From a virus (taxonomy: Duplodnaviria; Heunggongvirae; Uroviricota; Caudoviricetes), in IMG/VR virus record IMGVR_UViG_3300034105_001678, positions 5,543-69,542 of that record: a DNA stretch of 64,000 nucleotides; one strand, given 5' to 3'. Positions 1-37,540 of this stretch are shown here, piece by piece. A program made the position numbers and the translations under genes. The first letter of the stretch is position 1. Each line of letters starts with the position of its first letter. Below the pieces are notes generated by a model. It was not told the DNA's origin. It saw only the letters and a list, made by a program, of their open reading frames with translations, and did no database searches.

Positions 1-265
1 GATTGACAATGAAACAAATTCAATCTATTATTTAATGGTTGAACAATTTATGGAAATCAAACCGAGTGAAACAATTTACCGACACAACGGAAACGAGATT
101 GACAAAATGTTTTTCGAGAAGTGGTTAGTAAATTACGATAACTACACAAACCAGTTACAAGATAGAAAAGTAATGGTTTTAACACCAAAGATTTCTAATA
201 TGAAACGAGTAAGTGTAAATGGTAAAATTTACTTTATCGGTTAAACATTAGTATTACATTAGGAA

Positions 266-298
266 AGTCCTCTACTGAAAAGTAGGGGATTTTTTTTT
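266..298 (+). terminator. rho-independent terminator (hairpin cctctact-gaaa-agtagggg plus T9)
   Basis: GC stem-loop followed by a T-run immediately after the stop of ORF 35..244. Confidence 0.65.
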
Positions 299-415
299 AC
301 ACACCATATTCCATCCCGAACCAGATCTGGATTATGGATATTGTTTGGCTTTGGTCGGTATTACATTAGAAGCCAAACATTAATGTCCAGTGATCCCTGA
401 ACCAGGATGGAAAAA
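299..415. repeat. Intergenic palindromic repeat element (IRE) copy 1
   Basis: Left end CCAGATCTGG. Core is ATATTGTTTGGC...GCCAAACATTAAT. Right end CCAGGATGGAAAAAATAATTT. Same architecture at about 10 other intergenic sites. Confidence 0.7.
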
Positions 416-430
416 ATAATTTAAATAATA

Positions 431-463
431 TTTGGTGGAATGGAATTAATGTTATATCTTTGT
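431..463 (+). promoter_or_regulatory. Early promoter, Bacteroidetes sigma-A type (TTTG at 431, TATCTTTG at 456-463, 20 nt spacer)
   Basis: Motif AATATTTGGTGGAATG-N-TTATATCTTTGT recurs before 13 plus-strand genes. It matches the Bacteroidetes -33 TTTG / -7 TAnnTTTG consensus. Confidence 0.7.
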
Positions 464-483
464 TGAAACAAATAAACTTAATT

Positions 484-1056
484 ATGGAACACACTAATGA
501 AACAAGAAAAGGTAACTACATTACCAGAACGTATCAAGAGACTGACCCAGAAAGTCCAAGAGGTTGGGATAACCTAACTACAATGTTATGTTTTCATAAC
601 AGATATGATTTAGGTGATAAGACGGAGTACAAGTCCGATATGTTTGAAGGTTGGGAAGATATGAAGACTAAACTTGTTGATACGGAAGACGTACACACGA
701 TTTTACCTTTGTACCTATACGACCATAGTGGAATTACTATTAGTACTAGTCCGTTCGGTTGTAATTGGGATAGTGGACAAGTAGGTTGGATATTCATTAC
801 TAACCAAACCATTAAGGAAGAAGGTATTGATGAAAGTAAAGTTGAGGAGTATCTTAAAAGTGAAGTTGAGACTTACGACCAGTATTTAACGGGTGAAGTT
901 TATGGATACAAGATATTCAAAGTTGAAACTTGTAGTCAAGGTCACGAACACGAAGAAGAATTAGATAGTTGTTACGGGTATTACGGGGAAGACGAGTGTA
1001 TGAAAGAAGGAGTTAGGGTTATGGAATACTATCTAAACGATGAAGTAGTTGTGTAG
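484..1056 (+). CDS. hypothetical early protein (acidic, several Cys/His)
   Basis: ORF 460..1056 in the track starts at TTG. The in-frame ATG at 484 (MEHTNE...) lies about 25 nt after the -7 box. A hairpin terminator follows. Confidence 0.5.
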   Translation: MEHTNETRKGNYITRTYQETDPESPRGWDNLTTMLCFHNRYDLGDKTEYKSDMFEGWEDMKTKLVDTEDVHTILPLYLYDHSGITISTSPFGCNWDSGQVGWIFITNQTIKEEGIDESKVEEYLKSEVETYDQYLTGEVYGYKIFKVETCSQGHEHEEELDSCYGYYGEDECMKEGVRVMEYYLNDEVVV

Positions 1057-1081
1057 TAATACATAGGTTGATAAGGTGAAA

Positions 1082-1112
1082 GGGGGTGAACGAAAGTTCA
1101 TCCCTTTTTTTA
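1082..1112 (+). terminator. rho-independent terminator
   Basis: Hairpin gggtgaac-gaaa-gttcatccc then T7. Confidence 0.6.
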
Positions 1113-1245
1113 TTACCAAGAACCAGATCCACCTATATCCGGATTCGGAATATTGTTTGGCTTTGAGGTATTACATTATAGGGGCCAAAGATTATTTACC
1201 GGAGGACCTGATCTAACCAGGATGGAAAAATAATTTGAAAATAAA
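1113..1245. repeat. IRE copy 2
   Basis: AACCAGATCC...AATATTGTTTGGCTTTG...GGCCAAAGATTATT...CCAGGATGGAAAAAATAATTT. Confidence 0.7.
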
Positions 1246-1313
1246 ATTAAATAATTTTGTTTGGAATTAAAATAGTTGTATATTTGTGTATTCTAAAACT
1301 AAAAAAAAATATT

Positions 1314-1643
1314 ATGATTAACCAACAAGATTACAAAGGTCGTGAAATTGAATTTCAAATGGACGACGTTGATGACAATGTTTACTTCGAGGGTTGTGAT
1401 GACCACACCTTGACGGATGAATTTATGACTAACCTAATGGAAAAGGTTATGAGTTGTAAATGGTTTATTATGGGAAACAAGACCGAAGGTATCATTACCT
1501 TTCAATCCCACAATGAATTTACGATTGACTGGAAATCAATTACAATGGGTGAAGACTGGGACACCGATGAAGAAGATGACCACACACAAGAAGTCCTATT
1601 GAATTATGACTCCGAACAAACCCAAGTAGTTAATTTCAATTAG
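1314..1643 (+). CDS. hypothetical early protein (acidic)
   Basis: ATG at 1314 is in frame with track ORF 1257..1643. Promoter at 1256-1286, terminator at 1663-1690. Confidence 0.5.
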   Translation: MINQQDYKGREIEFQMDDVDDNVYFEGCDDHTLTDEFMTNLMEKVMSCKWFIMGNKTEGIITFQSHNEFTIDWKSITMGEDWDTDEEDDHTQEVLLNYDSEQTQVVNFN

Positions 1644-1690
1644 AAGTTACAAACGGAATTAGACCCCTTACAAAAGTGAGGGGTTTTTTT

Positions 1691-1790
1691 ATGTCCAAGA
1701 AGATCTGGTTCACCTGAGTCTGTGTAATTTTGTTTGGCTAAGCCAATCATTATCCATAGCTCCGGCCCGGAGATCATCGTCCCACAGAAA
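1691..1790. repeat. IRE copy 3
   Basis: TTTTTTTATGTCCAAGAAGATCTGG...TTTTGTTTGGCTAAGCCAATCATTATCC... Confidence 0.65.
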
Positions 1791-1816
1791 TTAATTTAAA
1801 AAAGATTATAAAATGT

Positions 1817-1848
1817 TTTGTTTTATATTAAAAATTGTATTACCTTTG
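1817..1848 (+). promoter_or_regulatory. Early promoter (TTTG 1817, TACCTTTG 1841-1848)
   Basis: 20 nt spacer; fits the consensus. Confidence 0.55.
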
Positions 1849-1871
1849 TGGAACAAATAACAACAAGTACT

Positions 1872-2729
1872 ATGAGTAATCAAGATTCAAGAGTAGTAGA
1901 AATACTCAACAAAGCAAAATTAAACTGGAACGTGAAATCCGAAAGGGTTACCACGGAGTCTGGTATTACATTAGATGGGTATTCAGCCCTGGTTCGTGAA
2001 GACACGAACACTCCACTATCTGTTAGAAGTGAGTCGTATTATCCTTATCAAAACTACGAGTTAGTAGAGTTGTTAGACCGAGTATCGGGATTAACTGGTT
2101 TGTCCATTCACAAAGGAGGTTTCTTTGGTGAGGGCCAAAAAGTATTCATCCAGTTGAAGTCCAACAATTTACGAATTGGTAACGACAGAGTTGAAGGATA
2201 CCTTACGGGAATCAACAGCTTCGATGGTACAACATCTTTGGCCTTTGGTCCAAGTAACATCACCATCAGTTGCCAAAACAAATTCTTTGCAGCCTTTCGT
2301 GAAATGCAATCCAAGGTAAGACATACCAAGAATATGGTAGTAAAGATTGATGAGATCTGTAAAAGACTAGAAGGAGTACTGGACGAGGAGAAGATTGTAT
2401 TCGATAATATCCTTAAGCTGAGTGAAACAAGGTTCGACGATATCATTAAGGATAGAGTTACGCGTGAACTATTCGGCATTAATAAGGATATAGACCTTAA
2501 AGATATGGAGGCAATCAGTGGTGTAACACGCAATAAGCTGAGCCGTTTCTATGTAGATTTAAATGGTGAGTTGCAAGGCAAGGGTGATAACCTATGGGGT
2601 TTATTCTCTGGTATTACAAAGTACACTACTCATAGCCTTACAAAGAATGATAACACTGAAGCCAAAATGTTTGGTGTGTATGGTAAGAGAGAGTTAAGCA
2701 TATTCAACAAGCTGACAGAGCTTGTATAA
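1872..2729 (+). CDS. hypothetical protein (286 aa)
   Basis: In-frame ATG at 1872 (MSNQDSR...). The long ORF has coherent coding potential. Confidence 0.5.
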   Translation: MSNQDSRVVEILNKAKLNWNVKSERVTTESGITLDGYSALVREDTNTPLSVRSESYYPYQNYELVELLDRVSGLTGLSIHKGGFFGEGQKVFIQLKSNNLRIGNDRVEGYLTGINSFDGTTSLAFGPSNITISCQNKFFAAFREMQSKVRHTKNMVVKIDEICKRLEGVLDEEKIVFDNILKLSETRFDDIIKDRVTRELFGINKDIDLKDMEAISGVTRNKLSRFYVDLNGELQGKGDNLWGLFSGITKYTTHSLTKNDNTEAKMFGVYGKRELSIFNKLTELV

Positions 2730-2936
2730 CAATATTCGGTTGGGAGAGGAATATTAAAACACTCTGTGGTCATAGAGTGCGAAGGTTAAGAATAAGTATA
2801 CGAGTGGTATCCCAAGACAACGCCCACGTTGCGTTTCCTATCGTATTACATAGTAGGTGGTTCCTTGAAAAGCATAACGCCTATTCTTATCAAAGACTGA
2901 CATAGTGGAAAGACATTAGGGATTATAAAATAATAA

Positions 2937-2971
2937 AGACCTTTCGGAGTAGTCAACCGAGAGGTTTTTTT
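2937..2971 (+). terminator. rho-independent terminator
   Basis: Hairpin gacctttcgg...ccgagaggt then T7. The small ORF 2846..3079(-) in this region is probably a shadow ORF. Confidence 0.55.
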
Positions 2972-3122
2972 ATGCCCAAGAAATAGCAACTGTGCTGCAC
3001 TGGTGGAATATTGTTTGGCTGAGCCAATCATTATCAAGAGCTGCGCTGTTGCGCTGAGGAGAGCGCTTATACGGGCCAATCAATATTGTCCGGTGCCCAC
3101 TGATCTCCAGGACGTAAAAAAT
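2972..3122. repeat. IRE copy 4
   Basis: TTTTTTTATGCCCAAGAAATAG...AATATTGTTTGGCTGAGCCAATCATTATC...GGGCCAATCAATATTG...CCAGGACGTAAAAAATAATTT. Confidence 0.7.
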
Positions 3123-3146
3123 AATTTAAAAAAAAATAAAATAATA

Positions 3147-3178
3147 TTTGGTGGAATGAAATAGTTGTTATATCTTTG
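3147..3178 (+). promoter_or_regulatory. Early promoter (TTTG 3147-3150, TATCTTTG 3171-3178)
   Basis: Exact 20 nt spacer. Confidence 0.7.
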
Positions 3179-3199
3179 TGGAAACAAAAAAGAAAAATT

Positions 3200-3532
3200 A
3201 TGGACTACAAAATTGTAACATCAAGTAATTCACACACATTAACCGAAAACATAAGGTTATTAATAGGTGAAGGGTGGGAACCAGTTGGTTCACATCAAGT
3301 CGTAACTATACACGACCAAAATAGATATCGTGGTAATCAACATATTGACACCACACACGAAACCGAGTATTCACAAACTATGGTTAGAAAAACCAATACG
3401 AAAGTTATTGAAGTGGATATTATGTTCAACCATCCTGACGATGATGAAACCATTAAGGTTTATGATGAAGAAGGAATGAGAGAAGAATTTGAATATGAAT
3501 TAGATTGTTTAATTAAAAACTCTGGATTATGA
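3200..3532 (+). CDS. hypothetical protein
   Basis: ATG at 3200 (MDYKIV...). The track start 3176 is a TTG. Confidence 0.5.
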   Translation: MDYKIVTSSNSHTLTENIRLLIGEGWEPVGSHQVVTIHDQNRYRGNQHIDTTHETEYSQTMVRKTNTKVIEVDIMFNHPDDDETIKVYDEEGMREEFEYELDCLIKNSGL

Positions 3533-3801
3533 ACAGAATATCAATTTACAAAATAACGGATTTGGATGATGTAGATTCAGATGCGATGTATTATACTCTT
3601 AAAGGTTTAAGAGAACAAGTGTTAAATGAGTGGTATGATGTATGGGGTGAAAGGTGGAATGAAAAATGGGAGGGAGAACAAGACTACACCAAAGAACAAA
3701 TCAAAGAGAGTGATGAAGACCTATTTGGTTATATGGATAGTTGGAATTATAATGTGGAAACAATATTAGAAATCACGGAAGATGACTTCCCTAAATCTTA
3801 A
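3529..3801 (+). CDS. hypothetical protein (acidic, Trp-rich)
   Basis: ATGA overlap with the upstream gene. Confidence 0.45.
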   Translation: MNRISIYKITDLDDVDSDAMYYTLKGLREQVLNEWYDVWGERWNEKWEGEQDYTKEQIKESDEDLFGYMDSWNYNVETILEITEDDFPKS

Positions 3802-3804
3802 ACT

Positions 3805-4026
3805 ATGATAAAGTCAATCGAAGAAAAGAAACACACACCAGTTGAAATAGATTTAACTGGTCCTGATGGAAATGTATTTTACCTTATCGCTCAAGGTGGT
3901 AGGTATTGTAAACAACTGGGTTTAAACTCGGAAGTGTTCACTCGTAGAATGATGAGTGGTGATTACGAAAATGCGGTCAACGTATTTGAAGAATATTTTG
4001 GATCATTTGTAACTTTATTTAGATAA
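3805..4026 (+). CDS. hypothetical protein
   Basis: ORF closely follows the upstream stop. Confidence 0.45.
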   Translation: MIKSIEEKKHTPVEIDLTGPDGNVFYLIAQGGRYCKQLGLNSEVFTRRMMSGDYENAVNVFEEYFGSFVTLFR

Positions 4027-4028
4027 TA

Positions 4029-4060
4029 TTTGGTGGAATGATATATTAGTTATATCTTTG
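4029..4060 (+). promoter_or_regulatory. Early promoter (TTTG 4029, TATCTTTG 4053-4060)
   Basis: 20 nt spacer. Confidence 0.7.
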
Positions 4061-4081
4061 TACCGAACAAAAAAATTAATT

Positions 4082-4279
4082 ATGACAAAGTATCAAGTAT
4101 TAAGTCCAGACGGGTTTACGATTGAGTTCGATAAACCTTATTACACCTCAAAGAAAAAAGCTTTCGAAGCTTTTGACAAGTGGAAAGAAAGGTATAAATT
4201 ACAAGGGTATTATAGTTCCAACAATGGAAGAATACCTTTGGAGGAATTAGAAGATTATATGAGTATTCGTCAAATTTAA
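4082..4279 (+). CDS. hypothetical protein
   Basis: ATG at 4082 (MTKYQV...). Confidence 0.45.
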   Translation: MTKYQVLSPDGFTIEFDKPYYTSKKKAFEAFDKWKERYKLQGYYSSNNGRIPLEELEDYMSIRQI

Positions 4280-4390
4280 AATCAATAACAATGAATATAT
4301 TATATTATATACTTTTAGTATTCGGAGTTGTAGTAGTATTAGCCGCGATGGTTGTAATACTCGTAATCATAATTAAAAAAGCGATAGACA

Positions 4391-4663
4391 ATGGAACAGA
4401 CCCCAACGACATTTAACTTTCATTTAGATACAAAGGTTACAACCTGGTATCGTACAGAATTTGAAATCGAGGCTAACTCATTAGAGGAAGCTCAGAAATT
4501 GGCAATTGCCTTTCGTGAGAGAGGTGATAACACGGAACTGCCGTGGGAACAAATTGACGACACTCTTGAAGGTATGATACCAGATGAAAATGGTGCAGAA
4601 CCTACGGAGGAATTATATGATGAGGATGGTAATATAATTTGGGATAACACTAAATCAATTTAA
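4391..4663 (+). CDS. hypothetical acidic protein
   Basis: ORF. Confidence 0.45.
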   Translation: MEQTPTTFNFHLDTKVTTWYRTEFEIEANSLEEAQKLAIAFRERGDNTELPWEQIDDTLEGMIPDENGAEPTEELYDEDGNIIWDNTKSI

Positions 4664-4664
4664 A

Positions 4665-4982
4665 ATGGATAAGTTAGAATTAATCAAACGTATTACAGAC
4701 ATACTAAAAGTTAATGGATGTTTTAGTATTGGAGAATTGGAGGGAGAAACCACAGGAATTTGTGTGGGTGAATTAGGTAAGTTCGTTGGACTGGTTGAGT
4801 ACTTCACCGAAGATTATTGTGAAGTGAATGTATATGAACCAAGTTCATTTAGTTCAGACCCAATAGACACCTACGAACAAGACTATGGTTTTTTAAGTGA
4901 AGATGTATTAGGTGATATACATTTATTATGTGAACAATGGGAAGCTGAATGTATTAGAACAGAAAAAAGAATTTCAAATTAA
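4665..4982 (+). CDS. hypothetical protein
   Basis: ORF starts 2 nt after the upstream stop. Confidence 0.45.
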   Translation: MDKLELIKRITDILKVNGCFSIGELEGETTGICVGELGKFVGLVEYFTEDYCEVNVYEPSSFSSDPIDTYEQDYGFLSEDVLGDIHLLCEQWEAECIRTEKRISN

Positions 4983-5084
4983 GTTTACATTATAAAAGAC
5001 ATAATGTATATTATATAAAATTGTGTTTATAATTTGTGTTTGAATGTGTAAGAGGGAATGGTAGAAATATCATTTCCTTTTTTT

Positions 5085-5232
5085 ATGCCCAAGAAGATCT
5101 GAGCACAGTGGCACAGGAGAAATAATGTTTGGCTTTCACCTTCCGACGCTGTGGGCCCTGGACTGAATTTGTTTGGCCGAGCCAAACATTATCGGACAGG
5201 TGGATCACCGGCCACCGGTTCTTCCCAGGAAA
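5085..5232. repeat. IRE copy 5
   Basis: TTTTTTTATGCCCAAGAAGATCTGAGCACAG...AATAATGTTTGGCTTTC...TTTGTTTGGCCGAGCCAAACATTATCGG...CCCAGGAAAAAATAATTT. Confidence 0.7.
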
Positions 5233-5259
5233 AAATAATTTAAAAAAAATAAAATAATA

Positions 5260-5291
5260 TTTGTTGGAATAAAATATTTGTTATATCTTTG
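5260..5291 (+). promoter_or_regulatory. Early promoter
   Basis: TTTG 5260-5263, TATCTTTG 5284-5291, 20 nt spacer. Confidence 0.65.
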
Positions 5292-5312
5292 TGTAAACAA
5301 AAAAAGAAAATT

Positions 5313-5561
5313 ATGTCAAATCTAAAAGATCAAGAAGTTAACTCTCATTGGACAAAGGTCGCTAAGAGAGTATTAGAGGGAAAAACTATTGTAGAAGTTC
5401 GTTATCTTAATGATGAGGAAATGGAAATGATGGGTTGGTATAAACGACCTGTATGTTTTGTCCTAAATGATGGTACAAGTTGTATGTTATCCTGTGATGA
5501 TGAGGGTAATGATGGTGGAGTTTTATTCTATGGAACTGATGGTGTTTTACCAGTATTATAA
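5313..5561 (+). CDS. hypothetical protein
   Basis: ATG at 5313 (MSNLKD...). Confidence 0.45.
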   Translation: MSNLKDQEVNSHWTKVAKRVLEGKTIVEVRYLNDEEMEMMGWYKRPVCFVLNDGTSCMLSCDDEGNDGGVLFYGTDGVLPVL

Positions 5562-5597
5562 TAACATATAAAAAAGTTTTAAAAAAATTAAAATAAA

Positions 5598-5629
5598 TTT
5601 GGTGGAATGAAAACTTCTTTATATCTTTG
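5598..5629 (+). promoter_or_regulatory. Early promoter
   Basis: TTTG 5598-5601, TATCTTTG 5622-5629, 20 nt spacer. Confidence 0.65.
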
Positions 5630-5661
5630 TGTAACAATTTAAAATATATAATCCAAAAAAA

Positions 5662-5687
5662 CGGGGACAGGTTTCTGAACAAAAATT
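5662..5687 (+). promoter_or_regulatory. Conserved 5'UTR element CGGGGACAGGTTTCTGAACAAAAATT
   Basis: A near-identical 26-mer also sits at 9461-9486, in the same position between the -7 box and the ATG. Confidence 0.5.
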
Positions 5688-5691
5688 GAGT

Positions 5692-6438
5692 ATGGGAAAC
5701 GTACAATTATTAGGTAAAAAAGTAAACGAGGTTTACTCTACCAAAGATTACAACAAGTTTAAATTTCGTGGGGACAATCGTATTGTCAAAGACTCTCACG
5801 TAAGAGGTCTAATTGAGAATATGAAGTTACGAGGTTGGGAGCCAGGTTCATACGTGGTTATCAACGAGAAAGGTGAAGTCATTGACGGACAACATAGAGT
5901 AAGGGCGGCTATCCAAGTGGGTATTCCAGTTCATTACACTATTGAGAAAAAAGCGGGGTTTGAAACTATCCGTAACCTTAATAGAAACCAAAAGAACTGG
6001 GCGATAACCGACCACATTCACGGATTCGTTGAGGAAAACAATCCACACTACATTAAGTTAAACAACTTCATTAAGGAGTACAAAGAACTTAAAGTTACTG
6101 AATGTATGATGTTATGTAAAAATTCATTCTCATCAGTTCCTCGTAACGAGTTTGAGAGTGGTAACTTTACTACACGTGATATGGGTAAGGCGAGAATGTG
6201 GGGTGATTACATTATGTCACTTAAACCATTCTTTAAAGGTTACAATCGTTCAATCTTTGTAAGAGCGATAGTGAAAGTGTTATCAAAGAAACCAGAATTC
6301 AAGTTTGATAAATTCTTACATAAGGTTCAATTAAGACCAAACTTAATTACTATGTGTGGGACAGTTGAACAATATATATCAATGATTGAGGAGTTGTATA
6401 ACTTCGGTAGTCGTGATAAAATCAATTTAAGATTTTAA
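5692..6438 (+). CDS. ParB-like N-terminal domain protein
   Basis: Segment ...VVINEKGEVIDGQHRVRAAIQVGIPV... resembles the ParB/Srx fold motif (idGhHRl.Aa). ATG at 5692. Confidence 0.45.
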   Translation: MGNVQLLGKKVNEVYSTKDYNKFKFRGDNRIVKDSHVRGLIENMKLRGWEPGSYVVINEKGEVIDGQHRVRAAIQVGIPVHYTIEKKAGFETIRNLNRNQKNWAITDHIHGFVEENNPHYIKLNNFIKEYKELKVTECMMLCKNSFSSVPRNEFESGNFTTRDMGKARMWGDYIMSLKPFFKGYNRSIFVRAIVKVLSKKPEFKFDKFLHKVQLRPNLITMCGTVEQYISMIEELYNFGSRDKINLRF

Positions 6439-6466
6439 GAGTTGGGTTATATAGGTTGGTTAGTAA

Positions 6467-6496
6467 AGTGGGGTGGACTTCGGTTCACCCTTTTTA
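6467..6496 (+). terminator. rho-independent terminator
   Basis: gtggggtggacttcggttcaccc then T5. Confidence 0.55.
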
Positions 6497-6579
6497 TTTG
6501 TATTACCTGGAAGAATGATCTGGGTCGGGGGACCTGTTAGATAGTGTTTGGCCCTGAATGTGAATAAGTTAAAAAAAGT

Positions 6580-6610
6580 TTTGCAGTTATTAACATTTTG
6601 TGTATATTTG
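6580..6610 (+). promoter_or_regulatory. Promoter (TTTG 6580, TATATTTG 6603-6610, 19 nt spacer)
   Basis: Fits the Bacteroidetes consensus. Confidence 0.5.
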
Positions 6611-6635
6611 CAGAACGAAAACAAACAAATGTATT

Positions 6636-6878
6636 ATGATTAAAAAATTGTCGAAAGATCAGACATTAAGAATGTTTGACCATTCCACGAAATTGTATTG
6701 TAAAATACAATTGAGTGAAAACAAGAAGTATTACGAGAAGTACGTTTCCAGGGATAAAAAGAACTGGGAATTAATTAGTAAGTTAAAATCGTTTGATGAG
6801 GTATTAACAACTCAGCAAGAATTGATAGATAACAACTATATGAACTTGTTTAGAAAGATTAGCACGGGTAAAGTTTAA
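6636..6878 (+). CDS. hypothetical protein
   Basis: ATG at 6636 (MIKKLSKD...). Confidence 0.4.
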   Translation: MIKKLSKDQTLRMFDHSTKLYCKIQLSENKKYYEKYVSRDKKNWELISKLKSFDEVLTTQQELIDNNYMNLFRKISTGKV

Positions 6879-6908
6879 TAGATTTTGGATTAGTAAGTTT
6901 TATTGTTC

Positions 6909-6940
6909 AGGAGACCTCACCAGAAATGGTGGGGTTTTTC
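6909..6940 (+). terminator. rho-independent terminator
   Basis: cctcacca-gaaa-tggtgggg then T5. Confidence 0.6.
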
Positions 6941-6942
6941 TT

Positions 6943-7150
6943 TGCAACTAATTTGCGCAGATCTGGCAGCAGAGGTGGATAATGTTTGGCCATCGTAACT
7001 ACTTGATTATCAATGATAGTCCTGGGCCAATCATTATCGGTGCTGTTGCGCGCAGCAGGTGTTCCCATTTATGCGCAGCAATTTGGCTGAATTATGCGCA
7101 ACTGGTGGCCAATCATTATTAGGGATGATCTCACCAGCATCCAGGGCACA
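6943..7150. repeat. IRE copy 7 (the longest, composite)
   Basis: Contains GCGCAGATCTGGCAG, GATAATGTTTGGCCATCG, GGGCCAATCATTATCGG, TGGCCAATCATTATTAGGGATGATCT and CCAGGGCACAAAAAAAAC. TGCGCAG-type sub-repeats occur several times. Confidence 0.65.
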
Positions 7151-7179
7151 AAAAAAACTTCATTTATTTTTAAATTAAA

Positions 7180-7211
7180 TTTGGTGGAATGAAAATAGTT
7201 TTATATCTTTG
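7180..7211 (+). promoter_or_regulatory. Early promoter
   Basis: TTTG 7180-7183, TATCTTTG 7204-7211. Confidence 0.65.
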
Positions 7212-7233
7212 TACAGAACAAAAAAAACAAATT

Positions 7234-7992
7234 ATGATTTACAAAAACATCTCACAATCTAAGAAGTCTACTGGACTATCTTATTTAGGTATGGTTAACA
7301 ACTCTACCAAACACGAAAAAGCGTACAAGTTCGATGAACTGGTATACACTTTATATTTGGCACCTGCCAAAATGAGTGGGTACGAAGTTTGCCCGATGAG
7401 AACAAAAGAATGTACATTGTTATGTCTGAATGAATCAGGTCGTAATAAAATGGACACTCACAAAAACACGATTAACAATTCACGAATCAAAAAAACTAAA
7501 TTGTTTTTTGAGGAGAGAGAATTCTTTATGAAGTGGTTAATCGATGATATCACAATAGCCAAAAAGAAGGCTAAAGATCTGGGATATCATTTTAGTGTTC
7601 GTCTGAATAATACTTCGGATATCTCCCCCGAATCTTTTTACTTGTCAATTGATGGAGTCAATAAAAACATACTGGAAATATTTCCCGATGTTCAATTCTA
7701 TGATTATACAAAAGTACCTAATCGGATGAGGTTGAAAATGAAATACCCTAATTACGATTTAACCTTTTCATTTAGTGGTAACAATATGGATGAGTGTTTT
7801 AAAATGTTACAAAATAACATTAGGGTGGCGATGGTGTTCGACAAAGTTCCCACGTCATACAAAGGTTATAACGTTATCGATGGTGATCAGTACGATATGA
7901 GATATCGGGATGATGATAATGTTATTGTTGGTTTGAAGTTTAAACGAGTACGAACTAAACTAGATAAAAAATATAAGTTCGTAATACAATAG
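7234..7992 (+). CDS. hypothetical protein (252 aa)
   Basis: ATG at 7234. Terminator at 7999-8020. Confidence 0.5.
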   Translation: MIYKNISQSKKSTGLSYLGMVNNSTKHEKAYKFDELVYTLYLAPAKMSGYEVCPMRTKECTLLCLNESGRNKMDTHKNTINNSRIKKTKLFFEEREFFMKWLIDDITIAKKKAKDLGYHFSVRLNNTSDISPESFYLSIDGVNKNILEIFPDVQFYDYTKVPNRMRLKMKYPNYDLTFSFSGNNMDECFKMLQNNIRVAMVFDKVPTSYKGYNVIDGDQYDMRYRDDDNVIVGLKFKRVRTKLDKKYKFVIQ

Positions 7993-7998
7993 AATAAG

Positions 7999-8020
7999 AA
8001 ACCCCGAAAGGGGTTTTTTT
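7999..8020 (+). terminator. rho-independent terminator
   Basis: aaccccgaaaggggtt then T7. Confidence 0.7.
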
Positions 8021-8165
8021 ATGCCCAAGAATCTCCGGCCACTGTGCACAGATGAAATTTGTTTGGCCGAGCCAATCATTATTAGAAGACGCCGTCGCCG
8101 GTCTTCTGTGAAGGTAAGAGCCAATCATTATTAGGGATGATCTGCACCGGTGGCCGGAAATAAAA
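8021..8165. repeat. IRE copy 8
   Basis: TTTTTTTATGCCCAAGAATCTCCGG...AAATTTGTTTGGCCGAGCCAATCATTATTAG...GAGCCAATCATTATTAGGGATGATCT... Confidence 0.7.
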
Positions 8166-8190
8166 TAATTTTAAAATAAATAAAATATTA

Positions 8191-8222
8191 TTTGGTGGAT
8201 TGAAATAAAGGTTATATCTTTG
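8191..8222 (+). promoter_or_regulatory. Early promoter
   Basis: TTTG 8191-8194, TATCTTTG 8215-8222. Confidence 0.65.
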
Positions 8223-8245
8223 TACCGAACAAAAAAACATATACA

Positions 8246-8533
8246 ATGATTAAAGAAAAAAGAAAACCAATTTCAGTAAGTGACCACAAGAGATTCGCTT
8301 GCTTTGAGTATGAAAATGAAACTTCACCAGGCTATCAACTGGGCGATATTCTTTACAAGGAATATGGTGAAGAACAGGAACCAGAAGTCGGAGTAGTCAT
8401 CCAAACTTTCGAGGATGGTGATGTTAGAACCGATATGTGGGGTATGAGTTGTGATGACGAAGTATCTCAAGCAACTTTGGAACAGATCAAAAAGTATCGA
8501 CCAAGTTTAATGGAATTTCTTTTAATAAAATAA
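8246..8533 (+). CDS. hypothetical protein
   Basis: ATG start as in the track. Confidence 0.45.
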   Translation: MIKEKRKPISVSDHKRFACFEYENETSPGYQLGDILYKEYGEEQEPEVGVVIQTFEDGDVRTDMWGMSCDDEVSQATLEQIKKYRPSLMEFLLIK

Positions 8534-8534
8534 A

Positions 8535-8566
8535 TTTGGTGGAACAGAATAAAAGTTATATCTTTG
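8535..8566 (+). promoter_or_regulatory. Early promoter
   Basis: TTTG 8535-8538, TATCTTTG 8559-8566. Confidence 0.65.
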
Positions 8567-8604
8567 TAAAATAAATCATTTACTAATTAATAAATTTAAA
8601 CAAA

Positions 8605-9045
8605 ATGGGAACACGTTCAACCTACCGAGTTATCGAACAATGGACTGATGACAAAACCGGTAAAATCAAAAATGAGAATTTAGTTTTAGTGTATCTGCAA
8701 TATGACGGATACCCAACAGGTCATCCTATTGATACCGCTGAATGGTTATCAACTGGCAAAGTCGTAAATGGTTACAGCCTAAACGAAGAATTACAATTCA
8801 ACGGAGCTGGCTGTTTAGCTGCCCAACTCGTAGACAAAATGAAAACTGGAACTGGTGGATGTTATATACATTCATTGAGTAGTCGTGGTAAATCGTGGGA
8901 AGATTATCTCTATGATATTATTGTCAAAGAAGATAAATCCATTGAGTACGTTTGTTATGAGAATGGAAGTAAGAAGAAAGAACTATTTCGTGGTTCACCT
9001 GCGGACTTTGTAATCAAATATCATAAAGAAGATGTCGAAGCTTAA
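8605..9045 (+). CDS. hypothetical protein
   Basis: ORF. Confidence 0.45.
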   Translation: MGTRSTYRVIEQWTDDKTGKIKNENLVLVYLQYDGYPTGHPIDTAEWLSTGKVVNGYSLNEELQFNGAGCLAAQLVDKMKTGTGGCYIHSLSSRGKSWEDYLYDIIVKEDKSIEYVCYENGSKKKELFRGSPADFVIKYHKEDVEA

Positions 9046-9406
9046 TAAAGTTAGATTTAACCTTTCACGTGGTGAAAACTATATGAAGTGGAAAGTAATG
9101 TATGACGACGGCAGGGTGGATTATCACCATCCTGCTGAAGTTCAGATCAATATGTTTGGCTGTACCCTATCTAATAATAGAAGAGCGGCCGACAAGATCT
9201 TTAATGGTGAAACTACCAAAGTGGTGTGTGCTTATATTAAGTGTAAGGATGTCCAGGTTATAACCAGTGACTTCAATACTGAAAGTAATACACAGATCAA
9301 GTACAACCCAAGAGAGATGCCATTCTGGAATGTGGATGGTGTTAATCACGACGGAAATTATTATGAAGAACTTTTTACAATAGATTATAAAGTTTTTGTA
9401 AAATAA
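9032..9406 (+). CDS. hypothetical protein
   Basis: Overlaps the upstream gene by 14 nt. Confidence 0.45.
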   Translation: MSKLNKVRFNLSRGENYMKWKVMYDDGRVDYHHPAEVQINMFGCTLSNNRRAADKIFNGETTKVVCAYIKCKDVQVITSDFNTESNTQIKYNPREMPFWNVDGVNHDGNYYEELFTIDYKVFVK

Positions 9407-9438
9407 TTTGGTGGATTAAAATAATTGTTATACATTTG
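9407..9438 (+). promoter_or_regulatory. Early promoter (TTTG 9407, TACATTTG 9431-9438)
   Basis: 20 nt spacer. Confidence 0.6.
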
Positions 9439-9489
9439 TAAAAGAAATCAATTTAAAACACGGGGACAGGTTACTGAACACAAATTATT

Positions 9490-10035
9490 ATGGGACTAGA
9501 TATGTATTTGTCGAAAAAAACTTATGTTAAACAATGGTCACACATTGAACCAGAGAAACAATTTGAAGTAGAAGTTAAACGTGGTGGTGAACCTTACACC
9601 GACATCAAATCCGAACGAGTGTCATACGTGACCGAAGGTGTTGGGTATTGGAGAAAGTTCAACGCTTTACACAACTGGTTTGTGGAGAATTGTCAGGATG
9701 GTTTGGATGAGTGTCAAGAAAGTTATGTAGACCGAACCAAGTTAGAGGAGTTAGTTGTAACACTTCACGAGGTCAAGAACATTTTAGAGAACTCACCAAA
9801 GAAAAAGGTACAGGTTAAAAATGGTTGGTCAAATGGTGAGGACACCTTTGTTGAAATCGAAGTATCGGAAGATAGTGAGAAGTTAGATGAGTTGTTTCCA
9901 ACATCATCAGGGTTTTTCTTCGGGGGAACTGAATATGATGAGTATTACAAAGAACAAGTTGATGAAACAATCGAATTGATTACTGACTTGTTGAAAGATG
10001 AAACGGGTGAATACTACTACCAAGCTTCTTGGTAA
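9490..10035 (+). CDS. hypothetical protein
   Basis: Preceded by the CGGGGACAGGTTACTGAACA UTR element. Confidence 0.45.
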   Translation: MGLDMYLSKKTYVKQWSHIEPEKQFEVEVKRGGEPYTDIKSERVSYVTEGVGYWRKFNALHNWFVENCQDGLDECQESYVDRTKLEELVVTLHEVKNILENSPKKKVQVKNGWSNGEDTFVEIEVSEDSEKLDELFPTSSGFFFGGTEYDEYYKEQVDETIELITDLLKDETGEYYYQASW

Positions 10036-10055
10036 ATAATATAACGGGAATATCA

Positions 10056-10087
10056 TTTGGAAAAATGGTATTCCTTTTATATCTTTG
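10056..10087 (+). promoter_or_regulatory. Early promoter
   Basis: TTTG 10056-10059, TATCTTTG 10080-10087. Confidence 0.6.
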
Positions 10088-10108
10088 TAAAACTTAAACT
10101 AAACGATT

Positions 10109-10753
10109 ATGCCAAACTGGTGTTCAAATTCTATTGTCATTACTGGTGACAAAGAAAAAATAAAAAAGATTAAAAGGGTGTTACAATCAATGGACACCAA
10201 ACAAGATAACATTGGTATATTTCAAACTCTTGTTGGTAAGGACGATAATATAAGTGAGTCCCAGTACAATGAGGGAGGAGCTTGGTATCAACATAACCTT
10301 GATAGGTATGGATGTAAATGGGATATCAACTGGGATGACTCCAACATTGATATTGAGGGTGATGAATGTATTACTATGTCACCACAAACGGCTTGGTCGC
10401 CGCCGGAGGGATTCTGTAGATTACTATCCGAACAATATGGTGTAGATGTTCTACTGGAATACTCGGAGCCTGGATGTGACTTCGCCGGTAAACTTCTCAC
10501 ATATGGTGATGGTAGAGAGGAGGAGGGAGAAACATATCAATACCTCGAAGGATTATACTTCATTGATGAGGATTACTTTTGGATGGAGGTTAGAAACAAT
10601 CTCGAGTATGAGTTTGAAGATGGAGAACCGAGAGAAGTAAAGGAATGGATGGAAGACTTCCAGTATGTAGATGAGAAACATCATAGTGACCTTATTGAGT
10701 TATATGATGATATCAAAGAGGAGTACGAAGAACAACAACAAGAATCAAAATAA
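10109..10753 (+). CDS. hypothetical acidic protein
   Basis: Long ORF. Internal ORFs 10254.., 10288..(-) and 10446.. are shadows. Confidence 0.5.
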   Translation: MPNWCSNSIVITGDKEKIKKIKRVLQSMDTKQDNIGIFQTLVGKDDNISESQYNEGGAWYQHNLDRYGCKWDINWDDSNIDIEGDECITMSPQTAWSPPEGFCRLLSEQYGVDVLLEYSEPGCDFAGKLLTYGDGREEEGETYQYLEGLYFIDEDYFWMEVRNNLEYEFEDGEPREVKEWMEDFQYVDEKHHSDLIELYDDIKEEYEEQQQESK

Positions 10754-10822
10754 TTTCACGGGAGCTGAGATGGTAAATAATCTTTGGCTCCCATTTATAC
10801 ACACTAAATAAAAAAACAAGCA

Positions 10823-11314
10823 ATGGGAAGATTTAATCAATCAATCGACGGAGTATTCACTGATCTAGTAGAAGTGGGACAAATTCCAAGTTATGACAAG
10901 TTCGTAAACTATGGTAATGAAATTAAACCAAGTAAAGACCTGAAGAAATTCACCGTCGAGTACAAGAACCTAGTAAAGGTGTTTGGCCCTACAGTGGAGA
11001 AGTTGGCAACACTTGAGGAAATCATTATGCAAATGAGAGCAAAAGAATCAGTGGATGATATTAAGTTGTCCTTAGTAAGAGATTACTTATATGCTCGTTG
11101 TTCATTCTTCCGTCGTGGCAAGTTGTCTAAGGACATTCGTGTTATCGTGGACAAGGCTGAATTCTGGGAAGTACCTAATGTGGATGATCTTTTAACCAAT
11201 AAGGACTTTATGGACAAAGCCGTTAGCAAACTTACAAGAGCAATGGACACTGAGATTAAGAACAATGTCTATGAGTATGGTAAAACTCAAGAGTTAGAAA
11301 ATACTAAAAAATAA
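10823..11314 (+). CDS. hypothetical protein
   Basis: ORF. Confidence 0.45.
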   Translation: MGRFNQSIDGVFTDLVEVGQIPSYDKFVNYGNEIKPSKDLKKFTVEYKNLVKVFGPTVEKLATLEEIIMQMRAKESVDDIKLSLVRDYLYARCSFFRRGKLSKDIRVIVDKAEFWEVPNVDDLLTNKDFMDKAVSKLTRAMDTEIKNNVYEYGKTQELENTKK

Positions 11315-11369
11315 TTAGTATATTCCAAATTAGTTTGTATCTTTACATCGAACAATAAAATAAACTGAT

Positions 11370-11939
11370 ATGAGTAAAATTAAATTAGGTAAGGAGGTTA
11401 TGATATCCGACCCTTGTTATGTGGAACCTACTTGGTGTCAACATAAGCTTAAGAATGTATTACCTGGAGAGTACTCCGTGTATAACAAGTACTTCAACGC
11501 TGGTGATTGGGGCATAAGGAATTCTATGTTGATTGCGGTCCATCAGGATTACGAGATGGATGACAATCTAAGATGGAAAGAATGTGCTGGAGCTGTAGTG
11601 GGTGTTGACTCGGGACAGGCTGGAATATTTGACCACGCGTATTACAGGAAGGACAGTGTCTTCGAGAATCAGGAATCCAAATTCCTTAAGGAGTATGTGG
11701 TCCACAACAATGAGGGAGGAGAGATATGGTATGCACATATGTGTGACCGTACCTTAGGTGAAGAAGGATGGGGACACTTCGAACACGGAGTGGTATCTAG
11801 ATCTGGATTCGGGGATGGTTCATATACTCTGTATGTTGCAAGAGTTAACCGCAAGGTGGTTGGTATCTGTATCGACTTCGAAGTTGAACCTGATGGTTCC
11901 ACAATTGAATTTGATTTCTATAAGAACCAGGCTGTTTAG
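11370..11939 (+). CDS. hypothetical protein (in the GC-richer region)
   Basis: ORF with a noticeably higher GC codon preference than its neighbours. Confidence 0.45.
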   Translation: MSKIKLGKEVMISDPCYVEPTWCQHKLKNVLPGEYSVYNKYFNAGDWGIRNSMLIAVHQDYEMDDNLRWKECAGAVVGVDSGQAGIFDHAYYRKDSVFENQESKFLKEYVVHNNEGGEIWYAHMCDRTLGEEGWGHFEHGVVSRSGFGDGSYTLYVARVNRKVVGICIDFEVEPDGSTIEFDFYKNQAV

Positions 11940-12140
11940 TCCTGGTTCTTCTTACTAACATCTAATCCAAAACAAATGAAAAAGTTCTTATTTAACTTGC
12001 ACTGGCTGTTTGACTTCTATGTCATTTACTTCACCTATAATACTAGTAAGATTAAAAGGTACCACGAGTATATGTCCAAGAAGTATGGAAACAAATACAC
12101 AGATTTATTCACGGGACCTGAGGAGGATTCCAAATAATGT

Positions 12141-12569
12141 TTGGCTATGAATGAACCAGAAATAACTTTAAAACCTTCACAGTGGCTGAATGCCGGTTGG
12201 ATATTGTTTGGCCTTGCGGGCATAATGTTTGTCATCCCTCCACTTATAGCAATATGGAAGATAATAGAACTATATTGCCACAAGTATGATTTCTATGAGG
12301 ATCACATTCTAGAGTCGAAGGGTGTCTTCACCGTCACCAGGAATGAGATTCATTATTTCAGAATCAAGTCCATCCAAATCGACGAACCATTCCTCTACAG
12401 GTTGGTGGACCTGTCTAGTTTGCACATTAAGACATCTGACCAGTATACGATGGAGTTCACCTTGAAGGCTATACCAGTAGGTAAAACTCTGGTGAACGAT
12501 TTAAGGACTGTGGTTAAGGCAGAAAGAAAGGCACATAATGTGAGGGAGTTTGATATGTACGACCTATAA
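12141..12569 (+). CDS. membrane protein with a bacterial PH (bPH_2/YdbT-like) domain
   Basis: N-terminal TM hairpin followed by a region resembling the membrane-flanked bPH_2 domain. The start may instead be ATG at 12147. Confidence 0.4.
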   Translation: MAMNEPEITLKPSQWLNAGWILFGLAGIMFVIPPLIAIWKIIELYCHKYDFYEDHILESKGVFTVTRNEIHYFRIKSIQIDEPFLYRLVDLSSLHIKTSDQYTMEFTLKAIPVGKTLVNDLRTVVKAERKAHNVREFDMYDL

Positions 12570-12638
12570 AATATATTTTAATGGAATTTGGAATTACAGA
12601 TAATTTTGTTTATAATTTATATATAAACAAATCAGATT

Positions 12639-12821
12639 ATGAAAAAAACAAACACTGGTCGTGCAACACAGGTAACTACCTACGTGCCGATCTCAGACAA
12701 CATTTACCACGATGGGTATTCTTACCGTGTACGAGTAAGAGTTCAGGGCGAGACTGTAAGCAGAAACTTCTCAAGCAAGAGAAAGGCTGTAGCTTTCCGC
12801 AACGAATTGCTAAGAGGGTAA
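12639..12821 (+). CDS. small basic putative DNA-binding protein (AP2/integrase Arm-like)
   Basis: YRVRVRVQGETVSRNFSSKRKAVAFRNEL resembles the AP2 / Arm DNA-binding fold. A terminator follows at 12846-12888. Preferred over the overlapping ORF 12581..12898. Confidence 0.3.
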   Translation: MKKTNTGRATQVTTYVPISDNIYHDGYSYRVRVRVQGETVSRNFSSKRKAVAFRNELLRG

Positions 12822-12845
12822 TTAAAGACTTCCTTAAAAGAGGGC

Positions 12846-12888
12846 AAGGCCTGGGTGTGAAAGCGCTTGGGCCTTTTTTTTATGTCCC
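12846..12888 (+). terminator. rho-independent terminator
   Basis: GC-rich stem then T8. Followed by the TATGTCCC...CCCAGGATGGAAAATAATGTTTGGC module (IRE-like, 12889-12935). Confidence 0.55.
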
Positions 12889-12958
12889 GTCAGTGTAAGA
12901 CGACCCAGGATGGAAAATAATGTTTGGCTTTAAAATATTCTAAATATTTATAGGATAT

Positions 12959-13669: not shown

Positions 13670-13679
13670 TTGGGTTAGG

Positions 13680-13760
13680 GTTTGGGGCCAAACATTATTC
13701 GTATTACAATGGTTGTTTAGACACCTATCATTTTAGTCAATAATGTTTGGCCCTTATCTA
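13680..13760. repeat. Perfect palindrome GGGCCAAACATTATT...AATAATGTTTGGCCC flanking about 45 nt
   Basis: Arms at 13686-13700 and 13738-13752. Confidence 0.7.
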
Positions 13761-14030
13761 TTGCGGTCCTCCCTCCGGTCGGACCTTCATCCCGTATTCT
13801 TGCCAAACAAGTTCACCCTGTATGACATCCCGTAAGTTGTTTGGCAAAAGTGATGTATGACTTGGCGGGGGATCTGTCGATCCCCCTTCAGGTAGATACT
13901 AGAACCTGGTCTATAGGGATATAATTATAAACCCATTATACTGGTGTATGACAAGGGGGATGTATGACATCGGGATGAAGGGAGGGAGACGAGAGTCTCC
14001 CGACCGTATAACCATTATACTATTATATGA
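13760..14030. other. Candidate replication origin / strand-switch control region
   Basis: Four TGTATGAC(A/T) iterons at 13819, 13854, 13945 and 13961. IR TTGCCAAACAA / TTGTTTGGCAA at 13796-13848. Hairpin GGGGGATCTGTCGATCCCCC at 13869-13888. Long-range IR at 13771-13794 versus 13971-14006. Non-coding over about 650 bp, between the plus and minus gene blocks. Confidence 0.45.
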
Positions 14031-14640: not shown

Positions 14641-14670
14641 TTATCTTTTTTTTGTAACCTGTCAAATATA

Positions 14671-17587: not shown

Positions 17588-17618
17588 CAAAGATATGGAT
17601 TATTTGGAATATCACAAA
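17588..17618 (-). promoter_or_regulatory. Minus-strand promoter (TTTG - 19 nt - TATCTTTG)
   Basis: The reverse complement reads TTTGtgatattccaaataatccaTATCTTTG. Confidence 0.6.
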
Positions 17619-28069: not shown

Positions 28070-28122
28070 ATTTTGTTATTTTAAACAAACATACGAATAT
28101 ACTAAATAACTACCAAATATTT

Positions 28123-37510: not shown

Positions 37511-37540
37511 ATTAATATAAATATCACAATTTTAGTTCAA

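Follow-up and report, generated by a model that had tools for sequence, protein, structure and literature searches.

To our knowledge, very little has been written about how phages of Bacteroidota organize their transcription, and the closest described systems are the early regions of T4-type phages and the promoters of Bacteroidota cells. In T4, about 40 early promoters of the host σ70 type, more uniform and more extended than those of the host itself, belong to a cascade of early, middle, and late transcription. The promoter consensus of the Bacteroidota primary σ factor was reportedly defined in Bacteroides fragilis. Here, we analyzed a stretch of 64,000 nucleotides (nt) from a Caudoviricetes virus (positions 5,543 to 69,542 of IMG/VR record IMGVR_UViG_3300034105_001678; the whole stretch is called the window here), in which an array of 13 sites matching this consensus precedes genes on the plus strand of the first 11 kb. 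Judging by titles and abstracts, none of the papers listed by a full-text search for the −7 consensus together with phages describes phage promoter arrays.

The Bacteroidota σA(Bfr) consensus consists of TTTG at −33 and TAnnTTTG at −7 (PMC6847099, PMC7366714). For Flavobacterium johnsoniae, Baez et al. 2019 refined the −7 element to TAHHTTTG and placed transcription starts 4 to 5 nt past this box, with a mean leader of 33 nt, a weak −33 element, and stimulation of translation independent of a Shine-Dalgarno (SD) sequence by A at −3, −6, −12, and −13 (PMC6847099). In Bacteroides thetaiotaomicron, the modal 5′ untranslated region is 23 nt long (Ryan et al. 2020, PMC7366714). T4-type phages contain PeSL cassettes, in which an early promoter of the host consensus is combined with an AT-rich tract and with a terminator stem-loop whose register varies (Arbiol et al. 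2010, PMC2839356; Comeau et al. 2014, PMC4122927). Plastic genome regions are where these cassettes cluster, in front of ORFans, and recombination uses them as borders (PMC2839356; PMC4122927).

The plus-strand array and its fit to the Bacteroidota consensus

We defined sites as perfect matches to TTTG-N20-TAnnTTTG or TTTG-N19-TAnnTTTG and used dinucleotide shuffles of the window as controls. The form with the 20-nt spacer occurs 13 times window-wide, against 0.80 ± 0.89 in the shuffles, none of which reached 13, and the 19-nt form occurs six times against 0.68 ± 0.85. On the plus strand, 11 sites of the former type (starting at 431, 1817, 3147, 4029, 5260, 5598, 7180, 8191, 8535, 9407, and 10056) and two of the latter (1256 and 6580) make up 13 perfect sites within 431–10087, where fewer than one is expected per spacing. 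All 13 are intergenic and oriented toward a downstream plus-strand open reading frame (ORF), which bears out an earlier, sequence-only reading of this DNA that had noted 13 plus-strand copies before genes. A scan allowing one mismatch gave 88 sites against 64 ± 7.5 in shuffles and was largely noise; therefore, perfect sites alone were used. The first 50 kb of T4, which have the same GC content, contain no perfect site. The plus-strand sites are listed here, together with a degenerate 14th.

431..462, + strand: P1; spacer 20 nt, −7 box TATCTTTG, extended TTTGGTGGAATG style; ATG 484
1256..1286, + strand: P2; spacer 19 nt, TATATTTG, core geometry only; ATG 1314
1817..1848, + strand: P3; spacer 20 nt, TACCTTTG, core geometry only; ATG 1872, DUF932 protein
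3147..3178, + strand: P4; extended style; ATG 3200, unit of three small genes
4029..4060, + strand: P5; extended style; ATG 4082
5260..5291, + strand: P6; TTTGTTGGAATA variant; ATG 5313
5598..5629, + strand: P7; extended style, long leader (62 nt); ATG 5692, ParB-like gene
6580..6610, + strand: P8; spacer 19 nt, TATATTTG, core geometry only; ATG 6636
7180..7211, + strand: P9; extended style; ATG probably 7234, Gp88-family protein
8191..8222, + strand: P10; TTTGGTGGATTG; ATG 8246
8535..8566, + strand: P11; TTTGGTGGAACA; ATG 8605, 38 nt past the box
9407..9438, + strand: P12; TTTGGTGGATTA, TACATTTG; ATG 9490, 51 nt past the box
10056..10087, + strand: P13; −33 TTTG in the loop of the upstream gene's 13-bp terminator hairpin; ATG 10109
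11315..11345, + strand: degenerate 14th site; TTAG-N19-TATCTTTA, with the TATATTCCAAA spacer seen in minus-strand promoters; ATG 11370

The earlier reading had called these copies near-identical and extremely uniform, which applies to about nine of the 13 and was otherwise overstated. TTATATCTTTGT is exact at nine sites, all of which also carry TTTGGTGGA, and the 16-mer AATATTTGGTGGAATG (up to two mismatches) matches seven, but the sites at 1256, 1817, 6580, and 10056 have the two boxes and their spacing in common and nothing beyond. Likewise, its description of every copy as TTTG, a spacer of 19 to 20 nt, and TAnnTTTG fits all 13 perfect sites but not the TTAG-bearing site at 11315–11345, the source of the end point 11345 given in that reading. 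The ATG, placed there at about 22 to 25 nt after the box, lies 21 to 27 nt from the end of the TTTG in ten sites but farther away in three (38 nt at 8535, 51 nt at 9407, and 62 nt at 5598). For P9, the gene probably starts at ATG 7234, because ATG 7189 falls within the promoter. At three promoters, the TAAATTTG that holds the −33 box (5594–5605, 7176–7187, and 8531–8542) also matches TAnnTTTG perfectly. Start signals in tandem or overlap are thus conceivable there, although the match is probably a by-product of the A/T tract.

Comparison with the published consensus supported the proposed Bacteroidota σA geometry as opposed to the E. coli type. All 13 sites satisfy TAHHTTTG, with G at neither of the two free −7 positions; the −33 TTTG stands 20 nt upstream in 11 sites and 19 nt upstream in two; and the fifth nucleotide past the TTTG is a purine in 12 of 13. 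σ70-type −35/−10 sites in positions 1–15000 are not enriched (61 versus 57.8 ± 7.0 in shuffles). A quicker σ70 control pattern, TTGAC-N17-19-TAnAAT, was dropped as unfair, having no match even in T4. Like cellular σA promoters of Bacteroidota, the phage sites combine both boxes at 19 to 20 nt, G-free −7 positions, a purine 4 to 5 nt downstream, a short but real leader, no SD sequence, and enrichment of A at −3 and around −12/−13. They differ from the cellular promoters in an invariant −33 box extended to TTTGG, in lineage-specific bases at −32 to −25, and in the strong conservation of the first transcribed bases. The predicted leaders, about 17 nt for most units (range, about 17 to 58 nt), are also shorter than the mode of 23 nt in B. 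thetaiotaomicron and the mean of 33 nt in F. johnsoniae. The comparison sets phage sites known from their sequence alone against a consensus drawn from cellular sites.

We consider it likely that the primary RNA polymerase holoenzyme of the host, of the Bacteroidota σA(Bfr) type, uses the sites as strong promoters, the signals being of a kind that no polymerase but the main one of Bacteroidota reads; that the phage copies the best promoter type of its host is well supported and to be expected. Region 4 of the σ factor would read the −33 TTTG(G) and region 2 the −7 TAHHTTTG situated 19 to 20 nt downstream. Transcription would start at the purine 4 to 5 nt past the −7 box. The resulting leader would measure about 17 nt, and its first bases, being rich in A, would double as the SD-independent translation signal of the phylum. 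The first 11 kb would then be split into about 13 short units of small, mostly unknown genes, each fired and terminated separately, a layout that would be expected of an early or host-takeover region and that closely parallels the PeSL cassettes of T4-type phages.

Host assignment and conservation in relatives

The start contexts of 110 heuristically called genes are poor in SD sequences, since GGAG, GAGG, or AGGA occurs at −18 to −5 in only 4 of them (3.6%), against 6.5 ± 2.5 of 110 for random 14-mers. G makes up 4 to 7% of positions −16 to −9, and A reaches 58 to 65% at −14 to −11 and 60% at −3. This A-rich, SD-less context agrees with the translation determinants of F. johnsoniae (PMC6847099), and the AU-rich, SD-poor starts of the sequence-only reading were thereby confirmed. 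The protein matches point in the same direction. The 32 best matches of the phage UDP-galactopyranose mutase (glf, 59543–60637), at 65 to 71% identity and counting one genome per species, all come from freshwater Bacteroidota (Sediminibacterium, Chitinophagaceae, Aquirufa, Cytophagaceae, and Sphingobacteriia), while other phyla reach at most 62%. The best phage matches of an SPFH protein (31512–32456) are crAss-like and Lak (Prevotella) phages, at 42 to 48%, and among 50,697 phage records the 65-nt cassette 3136–3200 is matched best in two Cellulophaga phages, phi10:1 and phi19:1, with 78% across 98% of its length (E = 3e-4). The start context, the mutase homologues, the SPFH matches, and the cassette match are four indirect lines of evidence, independent of the promoter geometry, and all point to the Bacteroidota host that had been suggested.

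A scan of the window for transfer RNA genes that could be matched to a host found none. As a specificity control, we also compared motif density in 80 bacterial glf loci between Bacteroidota and other bacteria, which was uninformative (one site per group) because these loci sit inside operons. A ligase protein that does not differ from that of the window is present in metagenomes of ENA and JGI. One of them, JGI 3300042324, falls within the number series of the “ME” lake metagenome-assembled genome names met among the mutase matches, so that we infer a possible link to one lake.

Searching IMG/VR with TTTGGTGGA-N12-TTATAYMTTTG returned 28 loci. By blastn, the early region is 93 to 95% identical to L020/L026 (IMGVR_UViG_3300017774_002667), 84 to 86% identical to L016 (IMGVR_UViG_3300046318_000354), and about 70% identical to loci on contigs of 180, 310, and 333 kb, the two longest being IMGVR_UViG_3300042545_001134 and IMGVR_UViG_3300027804_000001. 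Given these large contigs, the source is probably a large, uncultured freshwater jumbo phage with a genome of about 300 kb. Megablast with 32 kb of sequence from the window turned up no relative among cultured phages. All 13 promoters have orthologs in L016, each with both boxes kept; some L016 sites shift register (TTTGG to TTTTG, with a spacer of 19 nt), and the TTTG is always retained. Substitutions were counted in 21 pairs of orthologous promoters, as mismatches over cells and in conventional numbering without a position 0.

Six fixed −7 positions: 2/126
−33 TTTG: 4/84
+1 to +8: 4/168
Two free −7 positions (NN): 8/42
Spacer, −24 to −16: 36/189
Extension, −32 to −25: 24/168
A/T tract, −59 to −37: 68/483
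−72 to −60: 68/273

Constraint is strong on the boxes and on the bases transcribed first. It is weak at most on the GTGGAATG extension, which changes at roughly the genome-average rate. Promoter identity is about 0.83 between orthologs and about 0.65 both between paralogs in the window and between nonorthologous pairs across genomes. Gene conversion or homogenization as the source of promoter uniformity is therefore unsupported, and the equal values argue against ongoing homogenization within the genome.

Other IMG/VR lineages contain the same type of array with a spacer filler of their own. L019 (IMGVR_UViG_3300021225_000313) has an even denser array, 16 sites in 8.5 kb (9–8560), with the filler TTTGGTAGTATCAAAT ... 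TATCTTTG, L003 (IMGVR_UViG_3300042545_001134) has 13 sites in 14 kb, and L002 repeats TTTGGAATATAAT. In all lineages, an A-rich tract lies upstream of TTTGG, the spacer measures 20 nt, and TAnnTTTGT is followed by an ATG after about 18 to 24 nt. Promoter arrays thus look widespread among putative Bacteroidota phages, each lineage having its own spacer and leader style.

Cassettes, leaders, and further motif classes

An alignment of nine intergenic regions shows that the gaps before eight promoters, 197 to 470 nt long, have one fixed order of parts. A terminator-like hairpin with a T run is followed by ATGCCCAAGAA(GATCTGG), a variable GC-rich arm, ATAWTGTTTGGC, a loop or insert, GCCAAWCATTAT, a second variable arm with GATC, the A/T tract (AAAAAATAATTTAAA...), and the promoter. 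Terminator-like structures of this kind number 11 on the plus strand of the first 13 kb and are given here with one of the inverted-repeat elements.

269..298, + strand: terminator-like hairpin and T run after gene 35–244
338..383, no strand: inverted-repeat element, ATATTGTTTGGC ... GCCAAACATTAA, between terminator and P1
1080..1111, + strand: terminator-like hairpin and T run after gene 484–1056
1661..1690, + strand: terminator-like hairpin and T run after gene 1314–1643
2935..2971, + strand: terminator-like hairpin and T run about 200 nt past the DUF932 gene
5054..5084, + strand: terminator-like hairpin and T run after gene 4665–4982
6470..6495, + strand: terminator-like hairpin and T run after the ParB-like gene
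6913..6939, + strand: terminator-like hairpin and T run after gene 6636–6878
7999..8020, + strand: terminator-like hairpin and T run after the Gp88-like gene
10046..10078, + strand: terminator hairpin over P13, 13 bp, z = −5.0, closing gene 9490–10035
10760..10796, + strand: terminator-like hairpin after gene 10109–10753
12846..12881, + strand: strong terminator-like hairpin and T run ending the plus-strand block

The −33 box of P13 lies inside this last promoter's hairpin, and the T run and the −7 region overlap. The hairpin is kept in L016 (8881–8913, z = −5.3) through compensatory changes, and L002 has a hairpin of different sequence near 12877. Between the DUF932 gene and its terminator, about 200 nt (2730–2935) are comparatively GC-rich and untranslated, with no ORF, no Rfam match, and a folding z of 0.

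The inverted-repeat element consists of the 12-mer ATAWTGTTTGGC and its near-complement GCCAAWCATTAT, 3 to 60 nt apart (also written ATAATGTTTGGC/GCCAAWCATTAT). With one mismatch or none, the window contains 23 copies of the 12-mer core, all confined to 338–13751, as inverted pairs at 338/372, 1150/1184, 1727/1742, 3008/3023/3075, 5122/5181, 6979/7026/7108, 8071/8120, and 13687/13740 and as single cores at 6541, 10777, 12134, 12917, and 13235. This gives about eight elements (spans include 1150–1195, 1727–1753, 3008–3086, 5122–5192, 6979–7119, and 8056–8131), and the pairs always lie between a terminator and the following promoter. The cores are invariant across the window, L016, and L020, and the GC-rich, GATC-containing arms are hypervariable and look swapped between copies. 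Copies differ consistently by strand (GTTTGG versus GATTGG), so that a hairpin would hold fixed T·T mismatches. A structured RNA is unsupported, with 2 of 7 elements alone folding better than shuffles, and an Rfam search of positions 1–15000 (E ≤ 1) gave no match. The element could be a protein-binding or recombination site. Because P5, P7, P11, P12, and P13 have no adjoining element, promoter and element are separable.

The cassettes appear to act as gene-replacement borders between related phages. In L016, unrelated genes take the place of the first genes after the promoters at 1256 and 8191. The remaining 11 first genes are 72 to 96% identical in protein, and further gaps in the blastn map lie at 1304–1740, 3378–3805, and 8269–8526. 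With the exception of one ParB-like protein, the downstream products are functionally unassigned or match DUF or PHROG-unknown families.

Two genes with long leaders, which show no paralogy to each other, share a leader box, ACGGGGACAGGTTnCTGAACA (ACGGGGACAGGTT), 10 to 11 nt before the ATG.

5661..5681, + strand: leader box ACGGGGACAGGTTTCTGAACA, in the long leader of the ParB-like gene (5692–6438)
9460..9480, + strand: leader box ACGGGGACAGGTTACTGAACA, in the long leader of gene 9490–10035

A copy with one mismatch lies at 13032, and the box is kept as CGGGGACAGG in three related loci (L016, L002, and L009). Riboswitch- or attenuator-like RNA was rejected for both leaders (folding z about +0.4), and since RNA structure is not predicted, the box may function as an operator or in the control of translation.

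Where the plus- and minus-strand gene blocks converge, a noncoding region of 430 nt (13670–14100) holds four TGTATGAC(A/T) copies, inverted repeats (e.g., 13784–13794 with 13971–13981), and one 12-mer pair. Possible readings of this region, which has no match in Rfam, are an origin, a terminator zone, and an RNA gene.

The same −33/−7 geometry occurs on the minus strand, upstream of minus-strand genes, at 17618, 27683, 28117, 31035, and 34570, and a third motif without these boxes is also found there.

17588..17618, − strand: promoter of a second style, −33/−7 geometry, TGATATTCCAAA spacer
27652–27683, 28086–28117, 31005–31035, 34540–34570, − strand: further second-style promoters
Starts 24465 and 38935, − strand: variants with TTTA replacing the final TTTG
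37515..37526, 35908–35919, 31321–31332, − strand: third motif, TGATATTTATAT, exact, without −33/−7 boxes

Several minus-strand promoters and the two TTTA variants have the spacer TTTGGwATATwCCAAA, a 16-bp sequence that is near-palindromic over the −33 box and whose left half is the −33 TTTG (minus strand 27668–27683, 24450–24465, 17603–17618, and 38920–38935; plus strand 11314–11329). Its symmetry suggests that a dimeric regulator may have its operator there, over the −33 box. The three exact copies of TGATATTTATAT lie 5 to 16 nt before the ATGs of genes for a 518-amino-acid (aa) peptidase-like protein, a 410-aa protein, and a 74-aa protein, and the motif is retained at orthologous places in four relatives (L113 to L116) with 80 to 97% protein identity. 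It may be a late-type promoter giving very short leaders.

The three motif styles fit a temporal program in which the plus-strand array is one class; which class would fire first we infer from the T4 analogy and gene content. Because the window holds two other conserved upstream motif styles, the co-regulated class proposed by the sequence-only reading is plausible, even though the uniformity on which it was based is found in about nine of the 13 sites. T4 uses MotA/AsiA and gp55 to switch host RNA polymerase between promoter classes; we know of no such temporal switch in any Bacteroidota phage. It is a speculative and, taken as a whole, unlikely proposal that the window displays a three-tier promoter code (host boxes plus GTGRAWTR in class I, host boxes plus the 16-bp near-palindrome in class II, and TGATATTTATAT in class III), in which phage factors would read the bases beside the −33 box and switch host RNA polymerase between classes, and the inverted-repeat element would be a binding array through which the early ParB-like protein insulates or silences the early units.

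The remainder of the window holds two further gene groups. On the plus strand, 52519–61743 is a ten-gene glycan cluster, an unusual cargo for a phage, with several GT2 and GT4 glycosyltransferases, an NAD-dependent epimerase, a methyltransferase, and the UDP-galactopyranose mutase, whose nearest homologues belong to freshwater Chitinophagales and Cytophagales. On the minus strand, auxiliary genes are scattered among unknowns in 14100–52000. They encode NifU-like and Fe-S assembly proteins, a SAM decarboxylase, an Asp/Asn beta-hydroxylase, a thioesterase, and an SPFH/Band 7 protein, and also a DnaA C-terminal domain protein, thymidylate synthase, an ATP-dependent DNA ligase, and a DNA methyltransferase.

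Competing explanations and comparison with known systems

Several points weigh against reading the sites as promoters of the host holoenzyme. The invariant TTTG(G) exceeds the weak −33 element of the F. johnsoniae reference; the use of host RNA polymerase, the start sites, the promoter strength, and the early timing are all predictions; and the host assignment, supported as it is, rests on homologue taxonomy and translation signals. In the first 50 kb of the cultured Flavobacterium phage immuto, perfect sites are absent and the −7 box is not in excess on the coding strand, so that such arrays are not universal in Bacteroidota phages and their presence is informative while their absence is not. 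The roughly 90 products of the window include no σ or RNA polymerase domain, but its 64 kb cover only part of a genome of about 300 kb, and a phage σ factor or RNA polymerase could be encoded elsewhere. One might instead regard the sites as promoters of a phage-encoded or virion-packaged RNA polymerase or of a phage σ factor (phiKZ-, N4-, or crAss-like), the resemblance to host promoters being superficial. Phage-encoded RNA polymerases are common in the size class of 180 to 333 kb to which the contigs of the relatives belong, the motif is more uniform than typical host promoters, and one-fifth of the genome was inspected. We nevertheless find this improbable, given that the boxes, their spacing, and the exclusion of G at NN are exactly those of the host consensus (PMC6847099), that none of the window's products supplies a polymerase or σ candidate, and that the same geometry recurs before unrelated minus-strand genes and in a cultured 54-kb Cellulophaga siphovirus.

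A different possibility is that the core promoters are of the host type and that the extra bases (GTGRAWTR at −32 to −25 in the plus-strand array, TTTGGwATATwCCAAA in minus-strand promoters) serve as the operator of some factor that the phage encodes or its virion delivers, be it an activator, a σ appropriation partner, or a shut-off repressor. The extension rather than the core would then define the temporal class. GTGGA directly follows the TTTG in 9 of 13 sites, where the host consensus has nothing (PMC6847099), and the L016 segment likewise reads GTGRAWTR. Moreover, the near-palindromic spacer style is confined to minus-strand promoters, a third motif class exists, and the T4 MotA box at −30 offers a precedent. 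However, positions −32 to −25 change in 24 of 168 cells, about as often as the A/T tract (68/483), near the overall divergence and far above the core boxes; −29 and −25 switch freely between G and A; and four of the 13 sites lack the extension with all else kept. Other lineages have quite different fillers there, which fits an inherited “house style”, and a candidate factor was not identified, so that we regard the operator as doubtful. Even less probable, in our view, is that the repeat unit serves above all in recombination, as a mobile cassette, or as an array of protein-binding sites (centromere-like, or for packaging or ejection), its promoter look being secondary. The promoter does sit in a longer repeat with a 12-mer inverted repeat limited to 338–13751, whose arms are hypervariable and apparently exchanged between copies, genes are replaced at cassette borders, and a ParB-like gene lies in the region. 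Yet the invariant positions are exactly the σ contact boxes, orientation and ATG distance are fixed, five promoters (P5, P7, P11, P12, and P13) do without the element, and such a role would be compatible with promoter function, as in PeSLs (PMC2839356).

Read as host-type promoters, the sites do not overturn current understanding, and they are useful mainly for predicting hosts and for supplying strong promoters. Perfect TTTG-N19/20-TAHHTTTG sites in a dense array, together with SD-less starts, would be a phylum-level host signal for uncultured large phages that requires nothing but the sequence. The compact, naturally insulated promoter-leader-terminator units, probably very strong, are possible expression parts for Bacteroidota, in which E. 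coli parts fail. Finally, the cassettes suggest that a PeSL-style regulatory cassette serving as a recombination border evolved or spread beyond the T4-type phages of Proteobacteria.

Among cultured phages, the nearest counterpart (78.5% to 3136–3200) is found in Cellulophaga phage phi10:1 (NC_021802), where gp067 and gp068 diverge from a common intergenic region. The site there reads GTTG-N19-TACCTTTG with the same spacer GAAATAGTTGTT and an ATG 21 nt later. It differs in that it stands alone in its genome, that of a 54-kb siphovirus whose host is a marine flavobacterium, and in having TTG instead of TTTG at −33. Beyond the promoter, the two phages have no detectable DNA similarity. The array shares with the T4 early promoters its many consensus-plus copies of a host-type promoter, the upstream A/T tract, and its place in a region of small genes. 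Motif classes coexist in both phages, and the A/T-rich TGATATTTATAT near the start codon recalls the T4 late TATAAATA. The two differ in host phylum and σ type, and the temporal classes of the phage studied here are proposed from motifs. No T4 core genes were recognized in the window.

As in PeSLs, a composite intergenic motif is repeated before clustered small unknown genes, the stem-loop can overlap the upstream promoter box (here in P13), and the motif marks gene-replacement borders between close relatives. Mini-circles and, by reporters, promoter and terminator activity have been demonstrated for PeSLs, whereas the present cassettes are known as sequence only. The promoter is of the Bacteroidota type instead of σ70, there is no SD sequence, and the terminator mostly lies 100 to 200 nt upstream, with an extra inverted-repeat element in between. 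Because of these differences in promoter type, SD sequence, and inverted-repeat element, the cassette is a functional analogue of the PeSL rather than a member of that family.

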